Source: Escherichia phage radambza. From it: DNA of 64,000 nt. The notes under the pieces were generated by a model. That model did no database searches. It saw nothing but the letters and a program-made list of their open reading frames with translations, and was not told the DNA's origin. A program made the translations under genes and the position numbers. Positions 52,685 to 62,485 of the stretch are shown here, piece after piece (position 1 is the first letter of the stretch; each line of letters starts with the position of its first letter). The DNA is taken from sequence record MN850639.1, one strand, 5' to 3'.

Positions 52685-53233
52685 ATGGAAAAAGATAACT
52701 TAAAAGAAGTTGAAGGTAACTACTTAGTACTTGACTGGAAGGATGTTCGGGAAGCACTCTCCGAAGAAAATCTTGACTGGTTCGAACAAATTATCTTTGC
52801 AGTACGGCATAACCGAGAAGTTGAAAATGGTAAAGAGCCACTTGAAGGAATCTTTGTAGAAAGGTCTTATCCATTCTATGAAGACACTTTGCAGAAAGTT
52901 AAGATGTACTTTAAACAGAAGAACCGTAAAGTGGTCACTATGGTATCTCTTGGTGGACAGAGTATGTCTGTGATGGAAGATATCAACCCTAAGAGACCAA
53001 GTAAGGGTGTCTGTATAAAAATCACAGGTCATGAAGAGTACATCTCAGCAAGTGATTTTAGTGTGTTCTGTAATGGTTCTGCTGTCTTTAATGGGTTTCA
53101 CTATGATATCCGAGTGTACCCAATCAAGGGAGATGATATCATGATGCAGATATTCGATAACAATAATGGGTTCACTCATTTTTACCAGACAACTAAGTCA
53201 TCCTTGAAGACAGTTTTAGAAAGCCTGATTTAA
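52685..53233 (+). CDS. hypothetical protein (182 aa)
   Basis: Track start 52640 is TTG; first in-frame ATG at 52685. Confidence 0.45.
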   Translation: MEKDNLKEVEGNYLVLDWKDVREALSEENLDWFEQIIFAVRHNREVENGKEPLEGIFVERSYPFYEDTLQKVKMYFKQKNRKVVTMVSLGGQSMSVMEDINPKRPSKGVCIKITGHEEYISASDFSVFCNGSAVFNGFHYDIRVYPIKGDDIMMQIFDNNNGFTHFYQTTKSSLKTVLESLI

Positions 53234-53244
53234 AATATCTTAAG

Positions 53245-53276
53245 AGCCTCCTTAATTGGGGGCTTTTTAATTTTTA
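53245..53276 (+). terminator. rho-independent terminator ending the rightward operon
   Basis: AGCCTCC-TTAATT-GGGGGCT hairpin followed by TTTTTAATTTTT. Confidence 0.55.
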
Positions 53277-54659
53277 TAAAATTTTATCGGTTGTTCCAAC
53301 CTCTGGGTCACCATCACATGTGAATAAAATATCTACCCTTCTTAACAACCTTCTTAAGCTTACTCTCTATATATAGTTATATAGTACTATATAGTATCTT
53401 AGTATCTATCTAGTGGTCTTAATAGCCCCTCTGTATAAACCTTCTAAACACTCTTCTAACAAGCCTTCTTAACAACCTATACAATCACCTTAACCATCCC
53501 TCTACACCCTCTTAGAAGCTCCTATACACCTCTTAATCTCTATGTCAGCTATGTTACCCTCTATAGGTGTTCACTAGGTATTACTAAACCTCTATATAGA
53601 CTGTTTTAACAAACTTAACAGGAATATCTTTACAGACCTTATCTCACAAGGTCTAACACGGTACTAACAAGGTATCTTATAAGCCTGTTATTACCTGTAT
53701 TTTTAAAAGGCTGTATAGGTAATTATTCAGAATCTTAAAATTTTTATAAAATAGGACTATCAAGTCATTTTTTAGGGTCTTTGAAGGAACTGAAAAATAT
53801 CTGTAGAGGATGTATATCTGCTTGGTAGCCCTTAACAGCTCCCTTACAAGTACTTTGCAAAATTTTAAAATATCCTTAACAATCTCTTAACAGTTCTCAC
53901 ATCTTCTTAACAACTCTTCAAAGGTCTTAACAGTTTCTTAACAGAACTAACAAGGGCTTAACAGTTTTCTAGGGATTGGTAACAATACCAATTAACAAGT
54001 GCTGAATAGTCTTTACAGAGGCTTAACAGATGACTAACAAGAGCTAACAAGTTAATTTTAAAGAGTTATTTTGTTAAGATAATTAACAAGTTCCTAACAA
54101 GTGTTTAATCTTTTTAACAAGCTGTTAACATGGTCACTACTCTTTTCTTATCGTTCCCTTTCCTTTCTTAGTGATTCTTTAAACATACCTCTTAAAAGCT
54201 CTGTATAGCTCTGCATAACCCCTTTTAAGTCTCTTCCTAGTATCTACAGCCCAACTATACAGACACCTCTTTATAAGGCTTTACAGAAGCTTTAAAGGCT
54301 ATGTCAAAGACTCTTACAAGGCTTTTACGTGGTCTTAACAGAGATTTAACAAGGGGCTAACAAGTTGCTAACAAGTGCCTTAAAAGCATAACTATGTAGG
54401 ATTTGTTAAGAAATTGTTAAGAAAATGTTAAGGGGGCTAGCATTTACGTAACTTTTAAGCTACTTCAAAGTAACTTTTAAGCCCCTATAACATACTTTAA
54501 GACACTAACAAGCCCTTTTTAGTTATTCACAAGATAGCTAACGAGATGATAAAGCTTACACCCTTATAAGATTCTTTTAAGGCTCTGGGAAGCTCTAGGA
54601 AGGGCTTTTTAGAGTGGGTTAATATGATTGCTTAAGTTAGGTTGATAAGGCTGTTATAG

Positions 54660-54689
54660 AGCGTTTTAGAGCGTTTTAGAGCGTTTTAG
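54660..54689. repeat. tandem repeat (GAGCGTTTTA) x3
   Basis: Three exact adjacent 10-mers inside the heptamer-repeat region. Confidence 0.7.
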
Positions 54690-54853
54690 TGGTTGCCCTT
54701 CCCTTTCGGGTTATGGGCTTACATTTAAGGGAAAGATTAAGTTGATTTGATAAAAGGCTATAGAGTAGACTATAGAGTTATTGCTTTTTAAGGTCTGGTA
54801 AAGTTCTGACTTGTTAGGTGGGTTTTAAGATTCTGGAAAGGAATTTGATAGAC

Positions 54854-54879
54854 GTAAAAAAAGCCCCATTTAAGGGGCT
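54854..54879 (-). terminator. rho-independent terminator ending the leftward small-gene array
   Basis: On the minus strand AGCCCC-TTAAAT-GGGGCT followed by TTTTTTT. Confidence 0.55.
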
Positions 54880-54917
54880 GTAAAGGTATCTGGGGCTATT
54901 TAGCCCCGTTGCGGCGT

Positions 54918-55776: not shown

Positions 55777-55868
55777 TTTTGAATCTCCTAGTTTAAGGAC
55801 TTTGTTTAGTGGGGAGGTCATTACCTCCCGTTGATTAGTAATTTACTTGTTTTGATATCTGATTGCAA
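55777..55868 (-). promoter_or_regulatory. cassette A copy 2
   Basis: TTGCAA-17-TAAATT, hairpin GGGAGGUAAUGACCUCCC, RBS AGGAGA, ATG. Confidence 0.55.
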
Positions 55869-56339: not shown

Positions 56340-56432
56340 TTTTTGAATCTCCAGTTTAGGATTTTGTTTAGTGGGGAAGGTCATTCCCTCCCCGTTGATG
56401 TGTAATTTACAGATTTTTATCAGGCTTGTCTA
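56340..56432 (-). promoter_or_regulatory. cassette A copy 3
   Basis: TAGACA-17-TAAATT, hairpin GGGGAGGGAAUGACCUUCCCC, RBS GGAGA. Confidence 0.5.
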
Positions 56433-57563: not shown

Positions 57564-57654
57564 TTTAGAATCTCCAGTTTAGGATTTTATTTAGTGGGAA
57601 GGTCATCCCCTTCCCGTTGATGTGTAATTTAATCTATCTAAAAACCAGTGTCAA
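57564..57654 (-). promoter_or_regulatory. cassette A copy 4
   Basis: TTGACA-17-TAAATT, hairpin GGGAAGGGGAUGACCUUCCC, RBS GGAGA. Confidence 0.6.
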
Positions 57655-58158: not shown

Positions 58159-58426
58159 CTAAATGCAGTTTTTTACCTTTTACTATAATGTAACTCGATG
58201 CACTATTGCTTTGCACATCCTGATAAATTCTGCGCAAACGGCCTTCATAGTGTACTTTCCAACTGGTTGGAATCTTTTTACCGTATCCGGTAGCAGTTTT
58301 TTGGAGTCCTGCGACTTGCCAATCTAAGATATGTTGTTCAGCTTGTAAGTCTTCAAAGTGCATGACACCATCTACATAGTGACGTAGTGTGACATTTAAA
58401 GTGCGACCGTTGTTAGTAGTATACAT
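58154..58426 (-). CDS. hypothetical protein (90 aa)
   Basis: Preceded by cassette A copy 5. Confidence 0.5.
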   Translation of the reverse strand: MYTTNNGRTLNVTLRHYVDGVMHFEDLQAEQHILDWQVAGLQKTATGYGKKIPTSWKVHYEGRLRRIYQDVQSNSASSYIIVKGKKLHLV

Positions 58427-58518
58427 TTTAGAATCTCCAGTTTAGGACTTTATTTAGTGGGGAAGGTCATCCCCTTCCCGTTGATGTGTAATTTAATCTA
58501 TCTAAAAATCAGTGTCAA
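58427..58518 (-). promoter_or_regulatory. cassette A copy 5
   Basis: TTGACA (58513-58518 rc)-17-TAAATT (58490-58495 rc), hairpin GGGAAGGGGAUGACCUUCCCC, RBS GGAGA. Confidence 0.6.
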
Positions 58519-59137: not shown

Positions 59138-59226
59138 TTTTGAATCTCCAGTTTAGGATTTAGTGGTAAAGCTCTTTATCTGGGGCTTACTTTATCGAAC
59201 TATAAGCCCCTTGTAAAGTACTTTAT
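59138..59226 (-). promoter_or_regulatory. cassette B copy 3
   Basis: Near-palindrome TGTAAAGTACTTTAT, same GGGGCUUAUAGUUCGAUAAAGUAAGCCCC hairpin, RBS GGAGA. Confidence 0.5.
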
Positions 59227-59606
59227 CAGTTAATTTTGAAGATTGTTACATAACCATCGCTCCCGATGATTTGTGATACTCCAGCTTTTTCTACTTGATA
59301 GCCCATATTTTCAAGATGATAAATAGCGTCATCGTAACCATATGCGCCACCCTGATAACGTCTCTTATCGCATCTTATCAGGTTTTTTCCACGCCCAGCA
59401 AGTGCATGTAGAATTGTTTTTTCACTTGAAAGAGTGCCATCTAACATGGTTGCCGTGTAATGGTTGATTTTATTCCCGTTGATATCATACTTAAAATTGA
59501 ACGAGTGAACAACAATCACATTACCTTTGAAATTTTCATCAAGTGACTTCTCCAGTACGCTACGAAAGTTGTCTTTGTTGATGAATTTAGGCGCACGATA
59601 TTTCAT
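59226..59606 (-). CDS. hypothetical protein (126 aa)
   Basis: First gene of the array; preceded by cassette A copy 6. Confidence 0.5.
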   Translation of the reverse strand: MKYRAPKFINKDNFRSVLEKSLDENFKGNVIVVHSFNFKYDINGNKINHYTATMLDGTLSSEKTILHALAGRGKNLIRCDKRRYQGGAYGYDDAIYHLENMGYQVEKAGVSQIIGSDGYVTIFKIN

Positions 59607-59698
59607 TTTTGAATCTCCAGTTTAGGACTTTATTTAGTGGGGAAGGTCATTCCCTCCCCGTTGATGCAAATACTAGATAACCCCGTTCAAAGAGTCAA
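59607..59698 (-). promoter_or_regulatory. cassette A copy 6
   Basis: TTGACT-17-TAGTAT, hairpin GGGGAGGGAAUGACCUUCCCC, RBS GGAGA. Confidence 0.55.
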
Positions 59699-59819
59699 GA
59701 AAAATTTTAAAAATATCTTTGGCAAAACTGTAATGAAACGGGCGCACACGACTACCACAAAACAGAACACAAATCAAGAATTATTTTTCAATCCGCTACA
59801 AATTTTTCTCTTGACTTTT

Positions 59820-59850
59820 GGGGAGAGGGGGAGTAAGAGGGGGAGAGGGG
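59820..59850 (+). repeat. G-run tract (possible G-quadruplex former)
   Basis: GGGGAGAGGGGGAGTAAGAGGGGGAGAGGGG: four G runs of 4-5 in 31 nt within an AT-rich genome. Confidence 0.5.
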
Positions 59851-59869
59851 TTGGTCTGGCTCTCTATAA

Positions 59870-60050
59870 AAACCTACCTGCACGATTCTAAAATGATTTT
59901 TCTTGCCCGACCTGAGCGGGGTCTGCACGTTTTGAAAATGAAAAAGCCCTTTGGAGATTACCTGCACAGTTTGAAAATGAATTTTCTCTTTGGAGTTCAA
60001 AATTTTCTCTACAGATTTCTATACAGAACTCTACCTGCACAATCCTGAAA
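59870..60050 (+). repeat. four dispersed repeats YCTGCAC-N-TT-N-GAAAATGAA
   Basis: CCTGCACGATTCTAAAATGA, TCTGCACGTTTTGAAAATGAAAAAGCCCT, CCTGCACAGTTTGAAAATGAA, CCTGCACAATCCTGAAATGAAAAAGCCCT. Confidence 0.5.
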
Positions 60051-60126
60051 TGAAAAAGCCCTCCTTACCTGAAAAATTTACCAGATAAGAAAGGCTTAGT
60101 CTATTATGAATATTCTACAGAGTTTC

Positions 60127-60912
60127 TTAGTTCTTTGCGTCTAAGAAGGTAACTTCTGGTGAAGAGAAGATTGCCTCGATATCCTCATCAGTTCTTGCAT
60201 AGATATAAGCTTCTGCATCACTACCAAATGTTACAGCAATTCTGTGATTGCTCTTCGACAGGTGGGTAACTAGAGCGTTGCTTAGAGACATCTTTTCAAC
60301 CGGAGGGTTACTTTGATGTATCTTACCTTTTCTTCGTCTGAAGAGGGTAACTGCATTATCCGTGAACACTGCTACACCTGCAAAGTATCCTGGCTCACAG
60401 TAGTTTTTCCAACCTGAGAGTAACTTGTGGTACATATCACCTTCATAGACATACAGATAGACATCTACACTCTTCATCACCTGATTGATGATAACTGTGA
60501 CAGCTTGAGGGTCAAGTCCACCGATACCTGCACCAATCATAGGTAGACCGACTTTCTTCAACTGATTCACTTCACAGTATCTGTTAAGTTGCTTCAAAGA
60601 TGACTCTAAAGCACTGTATCGGGCATCTTTACCAGTCTTAAGCTGAGTGTAAAGGTTAGCTATACGACCTTGTTTTAAGCGTGCTACAGAGAAATTACCT
60701 AGTAAATTCTCACAAGGTTTGTGACCTATACCACCTGCATAGAGATAAACTTCTGTATCGGTCTCATATGCTTTTGGGTAAAGTTTAGAAATCTTGTCAG
60801 CGATACCTGCACCCATTAGGTTCATGCAGTTACAACCATGACCAATGATGTCAAACTTACCTTTATCAAATGCAGCAAAGATATCACCATTGATGATTTT
60901 TACAATACCCAT
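60127..60912 (-). CDS. macro-domain-like protein (putative ADP-ribose binding/hydrolase) with C-terminal extension
   Basis: N-terminal GDI...DIIGHGCNCMNLMGAGIADKI and later GLPMIGAGIGGLD resemble the two macro-domain signature blocks; 261 aa. Confidence 0.5.
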   Translation of the reverse strand: MGIVKIINGDIFAAFDKGKFDIIGHGCNCMNLMGAGIADKISKLYPKAYETDTEVYLYAGGIGHKPCENLLGNFSVARLKQGRIANLYTQLKTGKDARYSALESSLKQLNRYCEVNQLKKVGLPMIGAGIGGLDPQAVTVIINQVMKSVDVYLYVYEGDMYHKLLSGWKNYCEPGYFAGVAVFTDNAVTLFRRRKGKIHQSNPPVEKMSLSNALVTHLSKSNHRIAVTFGSDAEAYIYARTDEDIEAIFSSPEVTFLDAKN

Positions 60913-61926: not shown

Positions 61927-62192
61927 TGCTGCTTATTCCCTAATAAAATCATGTCAATAAGGTTATTAGCTTTAATTGTACACTGGTAAAAGCCGTCACG
62001 GTAGAACTCAAGTGCTGCTGCTACATCACTGCCTGTGTTGCCTTTGATGATATACCGTGATTCTTCTTGAGTGTACTTATCACTCTCACTTACTTGGGAG
62101 TTTTTGAATGTACTGCTCACTTTGTTCGTTGAACACCCTGACATAATTATCAGTAACACAAACATTATAAAACTCTGGCTTAGTTTTTTCAT
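61923..62192 (-). CDS. o-spanin (Rz1-like outer-membrane lipoprotein)
   Basis: Signal peptide with lipobox IIMSGC; gene overlaps the 3' end of the i-spanin gene in another frame. Confidence 0.55.
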   Translation of the reverse strand: MKKLSQSFIMFVLLIIMSGCSTNKVSSTFKNSQVSESDKYTQEESRYIIKGNTGSDVAAALEFYRDGFYQCTIKANNLIDMILLGNKQQ

Positions 62193-62433
62193 ATGTTAGT
62201 ACCTCTTTTGTGTGCTTATTCTTAGCAAGCACATCTTTCAAATCATTTTTGTAATTGGTGCTCAGTGTAACTAATCCTTCCTGATAAGCATCTTTAGCAA
62301 CACTTATTAGCTTCTCATTGCTTAACTCAGCTTCAGCAACTTGGTAGTCTCTGTAAGAGTATCCTCCCCAGACACCCGCCCCAGCTAAGAAAACAATTAT
62401 GAAAGTGGCTTGACAGAACTCTTTAAATGTCAT
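62086..62433 (-). CDS. i-spanin (Rz-like)
   Basis: N-terminal TM (FIIVFLAGAGVWGG) followed by charged helical periplasmic domain; 115 aa. Confidence 0.55.
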   Translation of the reverse strand: MTFKEFCQATFIIVFLAGAGVWGGYSYRDYQVAEAELSNEKLISVAKDAYQEGLVTLSTNYKNDLKDVLAKNKHTKEVLTYEKTKPEFYNVCVTDNYVRVFNEQSEQYIQKLPSK

Positions 62434-62453: not shown

Positions 62454-62474
62454 AAAAGGCTCCCGAAGGAGCCT
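62454..62474 (-). terminator. rho-independent terminator
   Basis: Minus strand GGCTCC-TTCG-GGAGCC followed by TTTTT; same hairpin as the terminator at 48071. Confidence 0.5.
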
Positions 62475-62485
62475 GTATCTTAACC

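Follow-up and report, generated by a model that had tools for sequence, protein, structure and literature searches.

Escherichia phage radambza (sequence record MN850639.1) carries, within the 64,000-nucleotide stretch of its DNA that was analysed (the window), an array of four spaced direct repeats in a non-coding spacer between a macro-domain gene and the first gene of a leftward cassette array. As far as sequence comparison can tell, this array is a non-coding element kept in every Felix-O1-like lineage examined, with three to five units that have the same core and the same position. The repeats appear to behave like protein-recognition sites, with invariant cores, a semi-variable spacer within the core and an interchangeable A- or T-tract at the flank. 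We tentatively read them as an iteron-like array of putative double-stranded DNA binding sites at a terminator-promoter boundary, an interpretation that is put forward here with some reserve. The window corresponds to a Felixounavirus genome; a 1-kb query around the array gave Shigella phage JK55 as its top match (98.6% identity) and matched 257 phage records, nearly all of them Ounavirinae (Felix-O1-like myoviruses). The spacer is 520 bp long (59607-60126), poor in open reading frames (ORFs) and flanked by two minus-strand genes, so that transcription runs leftward and the minus strand is the sense strand, which is also the biologically sensible strand on which to read the units. In the sense direction, it contains the macro terminator, units U1 to U4, a C-rich tract, a 47-nucleotide block, a sigma-70 early promoter, a 5' hairpin and a ribosome-binding site, in that order (Table 1). 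The original prediction had located the repeats correctly between these two genes and proposed a control region, a replication or packaging signal or remnants of tiny ORFs. A control region is now the best supported of these options, with a covariation-supported terminator at one end and a conserved sigma-70 promoter at the other.

The repeats are sharply defined. The pattern CTGCAC-N5/6-RAAATGA has exactly four matches in the whole window, at 59878, 59923, 59962 and 60035, all on the plus strand, and none in 100 shuffles. The four predicted copies are exact, and no further convincing copy appears in the window when two mismatches are allowed. The earlier remark that two of the copies continue as ATGAAAAAGCCCT also holds (at 59938 and 60050). 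Read in the sense direction, each unit becomes W4-5 TCATTTY-N6-GTGCA, and all four have one orientation, with an irregular start-to-start spacing in Felixounavirus of 73/39/45 bp. When scored with a weight matrix derived from 36 units of four phage lineages, the four copies reach 31.5-35 bits. The runner-up in the complete JK55 genome has 15.7 bits; this site, which follows the rIIB terminator, does not rise above chance level and was left uncounted. In the 36 units, little or no variation is seen at the TCATTT and GTGCA positions, and the hexamer between them is A/T-rich yet variable. The 4-5 nucleotides ahead of TCATTT form a run of A or a run of T, about equally often, and the 9-11 nucleotides further upstream are lineage-specific and homogenised within a genome. 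The core comes in the variants GTGCAGGT and GTGCATAG. It is asymmetric and bipartite and spans ~18 bp, with the centres of its two blocks about one helical turn apart.

Conservation of the array can be followed through 27 IMG/VR loci, which were retrieved through the macro protein and whose spacers were aligned. The macro gene always precedes the array, a synteny common to Felixounavirus, Mooglevirus, Kolesnikvirus and a divergent 88-kb metagenomic phage, L087. In all sequences of Felixounavirus and Mooglevirus, the units lie at equal offsets from the macro stop codon (~77, 150, 190 and 236 nucleotides), despite macro proteins that are merely 64-70% identical. Kolesnikvirus phages of Erwinia have a like architecture, in which the macro gene with its terminator is followed by four units at 37-39 bp, by a C-rich patch (CGCCCACCCTCCCCTCTACC) and by a promoter; U4 of the window is orthologous to their unit 3, with GGTCNGGCAAGAAAAATCATTTT in common. 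L087 is without nucleotide similarity to the window, yet it has syntenic genes, and its macro gene is followed by five units with a C-rich patch among them. At 600-760 of this phage (IMGVR_UViG_3300045988_063805), the array is followed by a ~150-bp A/T-rich stretch with about ten copies of TTAACA, which has no counterpart in the window. Phages of the ECML-1/phiWec177 type (loci L106 and L107) have three units, without U2, and a macro-domain gene with a different C-terminal half, a pattern that suggests recombination within the array. Part of their spacer, GCCGGATAG ahead of a unit, resembles the Kolesnikvirus version.

A scan for paired cores through 185,579 bacterial species genomes, IMG/VR and Joint Genome Institute (JGI) metagenomes returned Ounavirinae only, plus chance, CRISPR-like or tail-fibre coding repeats. 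A host chromosomal counterpart was rejected on the same scan, as no enterobacterial locus with paired cores was found among the 185,579 species genomes, although plasmid-borne systems in non-representative genomes might be missed. The array is not described in the genome papers on Felix O1 (PMC3185647), wV8 (PMC2674420), UAB_Phi87 (PMC4837284) and Pr103Blw (PMC8303462), nor in the Bas63 PhageMaP paper (10.1101/2024.10.10.617714). It thus appears to be a previously undescribed case of a known kind of element, a direct-repeat array of putative protein-binding sites. The locus also marks a spot where several assemblies of these phages break. The LMP34 GenBank record stops at ~59841 of the window, inside the G/C tract; the IMG/VR contig L006 likewise ends within the tract, and contig L010 turns into unrelated sequence after U3. 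Contig L007 passes from the tract directly into TGTCTCTTATACACATCTCCGAGCCCACGAG, which we take to be a Nextera adapter. These breaks in tract or array look like sequencing or assembly artefacts and not like genome ends.

The analysis shows how the spacer is built, that the motif is unique in the genome and conserved in four lineages, and that coding and RNA-structure signals are absent; we infer that a protein may bind the units and that the effect may be on transcription. A sequence-specific protein, of the phage or of the host, would recognise the units on duplex DNA, each site being made up of the invariant TCATTT and GTGCA, the A/T-rich semi-variable hexamer between them and the A- or T-tract ahead. 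The exchange of A runs for T runs, the most telling feature in favour of this reading, is equivalent for duplex DNA, as both are A-tracts, but not for RNA, and is therefore a signature of double-stranded DNA. The flexible number of units, together with their irregular spacing, suggests independent sites and not a processed tandem RNA. Since the motif is confined to one locus in the whole genome, it does not represent a general or a phage-specific (middle or late) promoter class. The real terminator upstream and the conserved sigma-70 promoter downstream give the array a regulatory context. Its position on the terminator, upstream of separately promoted cassette genes, suggests a boundary or timing element of early transcription. 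The array starts on the T tract of the macro terminator, and ~180 bp lie between its end and the sigma-70 early promoter downstream, with which the cassette array opens. Its most likely role would be that of a cis-acting boundary or regulatory element, where a nucleoprotein complex between the early operon and the cassette genes would reinforce or time the separation of the two.

A useful parallel is the p4/p6 complex of phage phi29, located between A2c, A2b and A3, which is a nucleoprotein switch between phage promoters. In both cases, an early regulatory spacer contains several spaced sites rich in A/T tracts, whose recognition probably takes place on curved duplex DNA, and an array of regulator sites of the phi29 type is the analogy that we favour for how the repeats may work. 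However, the p4 sites are inverted repeats that overlap promoters, whereas the units described here are asymmetric direct repeats at 180-380 bp from the promoter, and we know of no p4-like protein in these phages.

Several observations weigh against a boundary element of this kind. No binding protein emerged from the analysis. The neighbouring phrog_4495 product was considered for this role and rejected, as it gave no DNA-binding evidence: it has no PDB match, its homologues are confined to Ounavirinae and its AlphaFold model has a predicted local distance difference test (pLDDT) score of only 43.5. At 180-380 bp upstream of the nearest convincing promoter, the units are too far away for simple operator-type repression, and with a spacing of 37-45 bp, adjacent sites face different sides of the helix. 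A weak divergent element on the plus strand, TTGACT-17-TAAGAG, could transcribe the array, which leaves room for a role as RNA. U1 in some relatives also fits sigma-70 (in JK55, TTTTCA-17-TATATT), so that the conservation might be partly promoter-related. Tandem sigma-70 promoters as such were discarded: a promoter scan gives no hit in any of the window's four units, the U1 of JK55 is the only unit to pass, and the candidate spacings range from 15 to 22 bp across lineages. A comparison by eye with established consensus sequences, which provides leads and not tests, found no fit to sigma-54, sigma-E, sigma-32, the T4 MotA box, CRP, IHF, Fis, OmpR, the MarA/SoxS/Rob marbox, ArgR, NsrR, Chi, KOPS, the RfaH ops element or EcoKI-type bipartite sites.

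Beside the last unit lies the 31-nucleotide run of four G tracts that the original prediction had singled out, and it is indeed the sole canonical G-quadruplex (G4) motif (G3+N1-7, four times) on either strand of the window. Its four G runs of 4-5 are joined by loops of 3, 7 and 3 nucleotides, inside the 1-7 range, and its G4Hunter score, 2.36, is the highest in the window, so the suggested G4 prediction bears the claim out. The tract is mirror-symmetric at 29 of its 31 positions, forming a 14+3+14 homopurine mirror repeat. In its run and loop pattern, score and mirror repeat, it resembles canonical G-quadruplex and H-DNA motifs; unlike these, it is allelic and dispensable in most relatives. 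Among ~250 related records, 109 carry the tract, and in 140 its place between the same conserved flanks is taken by an unrelated segment of about equal length. This replacement allele is G-rich on the opposite strand, with G4Hunter scores of 1.5-2.2. In other lineages, the score is 1.88-1.92 in Mooglevirus (canonical, but weaker), 1.68 in Kolesnikvirus (sub-canonical) and 1.08 in L087, and a canonical motif is absent from Kolesnikvirus, L087 and the replacement allele. Comparison with related phages, which had been proposed as a check, divides the two elements: the repeats are deeply conserved, and the G tract is kept in only part of the relatives. The feature that persists beside the last unit is a G/C-biased patch and not a G-quadruplex as such. 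The tract itself is optional and allelic, and is probably an exchangeable accessory element, with a predicted capacity for G4 or H-DNA folding, and not the core of the system. A Rho-utilisation site was considered and rejected, as the sense strand around the tract has 37% C and 15% G, at about the 99th percentile, which is not exceptional. The second strongest G-rich patch of the window (62340-62390, minus strand, GCTGGGGCGGGTGTCTGGGGAGG, G4Hunter ~1.76) falls within the coding region 62086-62433, where it probably results from a membrane segment rich in glycine.

The main rival to the boundary element, though a weaker one, is a replication origin, which we consider unlikely. The units would then be iterons for a phage initiator, and the G/C mirror repeat and an A/T-rich stretch would aid strand opening or R-loop priming. 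Well-known examples of such iterons include the four 19-bp O-protein sites of ori lambda and the iterons of P1, F and pSC101. Like these, the units are three to five direct repeats (~19-26 bp, the ~19 bp being common to both) in one orientation within one of the larger non-coding regions, their motif is unique in the genome, as an origin would be, and their flanks evolve in concert in each lineage. They adjoin A/T-rich DNA and a strand-biased purine/pyrimidine tract, a G/C patch capable of non-B-DNA being present beside the array in four lineages, and in L087 the array is followed by the very A/T-rich tract with its many TTAACA copies. However, the spacing, whether 73/39/45 bp here or 37-39 bp in Kolesnikvirus, is without the helical phasing of ~22 bp that classical iterons have. 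There is also no marked unwinding element. Nearest-neighbour stability puts the best 100-bp segment of the spacer at the 92nd percentile, and the window is least stable elsewhere (53.3-54.1 kb near the terminal repeat, 4.0 kb and 10.3 kb). Cumulative GC skew turns near 14 kb and 45 kb, with gene orientation, and shows no switch at 60 kb; no recognisable initiator gene lies nearby; and, unlike origin iterons, the array overlies a transcription terminator and has early units of one and the same orientation on its two sides. For the replication signal that had been proposed, three or more direct repeats of ~17-22 bp in one orientation would be expected, and these are present; helical phasing, a DNA-unwinding element beside the repeats and a switch of skew at the site are not. 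DnaA boxes were likewise rejected. Against the established consensus TTATNCACA, ACCTGCACA and TCTGCACG match 5-6 of 9 positions (just 6/9 at best in this phage) where no more than one mismatch was permitted, and the units of the Erwinia phages in Kolesnikvirus (CTATGCACA) match at 8/9. Equally improbable is the view that the G tract is the functional element and the repeats are secondary, with a G-quadruplex or H-DNA blocking read-through or marking a structural site. The sole G4 motif in 64 kb, its high score and its near-perfect mirror repeat would agree with this, as would the G-rich patches beside the array in Mooglevirus and Kolesnikvirus and the G-rich opposite strand of the replacement allele. 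Against it stand the many records with an unrelated segment, the lineages without a canonical motif and an identity to Mooglevirus of 66-71%, compared with 89-91% for the neighbouring block; moreover, a canonical G4 motif anywhere in the window is only mildly unlikely by chance, as it arises in 18 of 300 first-order Markov shuffles. There is still less to be said for neutral leftovers, that is, for units that are duplicated 3' halves of terminators (GGGCTTTTTCATTT...) persisting by chance. U1 is a true terminator tail, U3 retains GGGCTTTTTCATTTTC, another terminator of the window has a tail like the start of U1, and the lineage-specific, homogenised blocks upstream of the core are what duplication and gene conversion would give. 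Nevertheless, four lineages with proteins of just 40-70% identity have invariant cores in common, although the sequence between the units diverges, the array is as similar to Mooglevirus (72-73%) as the adjoining coding DNA, and the GTGCA block belongs to no terminator.

The two remaining explanations require the array to be transcribed or translated. It is very unlikely that it encodes a non-coding RNA decoy or antitoxin mimic (ToxI or pseudo-ToxI), made on the plus strand from TTGACT-17-TAAGAG and cut by an A-rich-specific RNase at AAAAUGA. Phage phiTE has a ToxI mimic in an intergenic region (PMC3475682), and type III toxins cleave A-rich motifs such as AA/AU (PMC5086642). The array is similar in that it consists of short repeats in a phage intergenic region, with a unit of 36-39 nucleotides in ToxI and Kolesnikvirus, the latter forming a regular 37-39-nucleotide array near the 36-nucleotide ToxI unit. 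An A-rich AAAU motif is present in each unit (AAAAU in every unit on the plus strand), and the order on that strand is promoter-like box, repeats and hairpin. On the other hand, the units within a genome are not near-identical, differing in their flanks and central hexamer, and only Kolesnikvirus has a regular spacing. The swap of A and T runs ahead of the core is incompatible with a single RNA fold and points to recognition at the level of DNA. The plus-strand hairpin is without a U tail, the -10 box is poor, and the paired-core scan, which could have missed plasmid-borne systems of non-representative genomes, found no enterobacterial locus among the 185,579 species genomes that might be a cognate antitoxin array next to a ToxN-like gene. 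A structured RNA was also rejected: the covariation term is -0.18, with the terminator stem alone supported, and the minimum free energy z-scores are -0.04 and +1.11 for folds without pseudoknots. An Rfam search of the array gave sub-threshold chance hits only (17-20 bits, compared with gathering scores of 35-50). Small protein-coding genes over the repeats, as found in some GenBank records, are hardly credible. In all Felixounaviruses, both strands have several reading frames that run open through the array, genes have been annotated within 59788-60048 as wV8 gene 13 (minus strand) and UAB_Phi87 orf48-50 (plus strand), and the alternative tract allele provides an ATG for a 66-amino-acid ORF on the plus strand. 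However, the substitutions lack codon periodicity, with phases of 8/15/14 in the array compared with 14/31/112 in the macro gene, where 112 of 157 fall at codon position 3. In wV8, VpaE1, Mooglevirus and Kolesnikvirus, the frames are interrupted although the DNA motif stays, and the ORFs across the array have no ribosome-binding sites and no Pfam or PHROGs match above the curated threshold. This comparison of sequences indicates that wV8 gene 13 and UAB_Phi87 orf48-50 are over-annotations, and with them the notion of remnants of tiny ORFs falls.

A packaging signal, another option of the original prediction, is rejected, as the annotated 581-bp direct terminal repeat of Pr103Blw maps to 53824-54437, 5.4 kb from the array. 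Direct terminal repeats of 581-608 bp are documented for the genus (PMC4837284, PMC8303462), and the presence of this homologue means that the physical genome end lies within the window. The homologue is located in an ORF-free stretch (53233-54909), the genes on either side point toward it, and three of the least stable 60-bp segments of the window start at 53365, 53714 and 54053.

The other parts of the spacer are listed with the units in Table 1. The macro terminator is recorded as a rho-independent terminator in the wV8 and KhF3 annotations, and its stem pairs survive U-G to C-G changes between genera, which provides covariation support. Its T tract (TTTTTCATTTC) doubles as the 5' part of unit U1. 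A second intrinsic terminator, at 62457-62480 on the minus strand (AGGCTCC-TTCG-GGAGCCT), has a tail, TTTTTCATTTCAGGA, that is identical over 15 nucleotides to the start of U1, and CAGGAG acts there as the ribosome-binding site of the next gene. The 47-nucleotide block, which adjoins the G tract, is 89-91% identical to Mooglevirus, compared with 72-73% for the array and 73% for the DNA of the macro gene. It contains two divergent -35-like boxes, TTGACT on the plus strand and TTGATT on the minus strand, which can be extended to TTGACT-17-TAAGAG and TTGATT-17-TAGTCG; both have A/T-rich upstream stretches and poor -10 boxes. An A/T-rich UP-like stretch precedes the sigma-70 early promoter. The 5'-leader hairpin belongs to a module of promoter, hairpin and ribosome-binding site found before each cassette gene, with copies of the ~70-nucleotide hairpin and ribosome-binding-site part at 59607-59665, 58417-58495, 57564-57631, 56341-56410 and 55777-55847 and a sigma-70 promoter ahead of each. 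The wV8 annotation lists these modules as repeats DR_1 to DR_9, and some relatives have an extra cassette of ~483 bp within the leftward series. Promoter-early-stem-loop (PeSL) cassettes are known from T4-type phages, and the promoter and hairpin repeated here before each small early gene are similar to them. This likeness covers the cassette array only, as the four-unit array and the G tract occur once, upstream of the first cassette.

Table 1 Features of the spacer between the macro-domain gene and the cassette array, in window coordinates and in sense-strand order.
Feature	Position	Strand	Evidence and remarks
Macro-domain gene, upstream flank	60127-60912	-	Pfam Macro, E=1e-7, above curated cutoff; phrog_335, E=7.5e-112
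Intrinsic terminator of macro gene	60056-60097	-	Scan: 17-pair stem, then T run
Unit U1 (fourth copy of the original prediction), sense CTTTTTCATTTCAGGATTGTGCAGGT	60033-60058	-	31.5 bits
Unit U2, sense AAAATTCATTTTCAAACTGTGCAGGT	59960-59985	-	35.0 bits; missing in ECML-1/phiWec177-type relatives
Unit U3, sense CTTTTTCATTTTCAAAACGTGCAGAC	59921-59946	-	32.5 bits
Unit U4, sense AAAAATCATTTTAGAATCGTGCAGGT	59876-59901	-	32.1 bits
G-quadruplex-capable homopurine mirror repeat GGGGAGAGGGGGAGTAAGAGGGGGAGAGGGG (predicted folding)	59820-59850	+	C-rich tract on sense strand
47-nucleotide block, sense AAAAGTCAAGAGAAAAATTTGTAGCGGATTGAAAAATAATTCTTGAT	59773-59819		Best conserved part of spacer; contains inverted repeat I4
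Sigma-70 early promoter of first cassette gene, TTGACT-17-TAGTAT	59670-59698	-	Promoter scan; conserved in all aligned relatives
5'-leader hairpin GGGGAGGGAATGACCTTCCCC	59639-59659	-	Sequence; repeat DR_6 in wV8 annotation
First gene of leftward cassette array, downstream flank	59226-59606	-	phrog_4495, function not assigned

Felix O1 and related phages have a classic place in the typing and biocontrol of Salmonella and E. coli, and Bas63 is now also used for genome-wide engineering. For users of these genomes, the analysis of the array sets right the annotation of spurious small ORFs in several GenBank records. According to the genome paper on Felix O1 (PMC3185647), it is not understood how transcription is regulated over time. 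With an invariant core that is held at one position in four lineages of the subfamily, the non-coding element offers a concrete handle for finding a regulator or initiator. In a broader proposition, which we consider unlikely, the array, the G/C-biased tract and the 47-nucleotide block would jointly form an Ounavirinae replication origin or another genome-level cis element, for example the site of a dedicated phage DNA-binding protein that sets early transcription, with TCATTT-N7-GTGCA as a new bipartite motif. If this is true, this widely used subfamily of phages would have its first defined cis-acting element.

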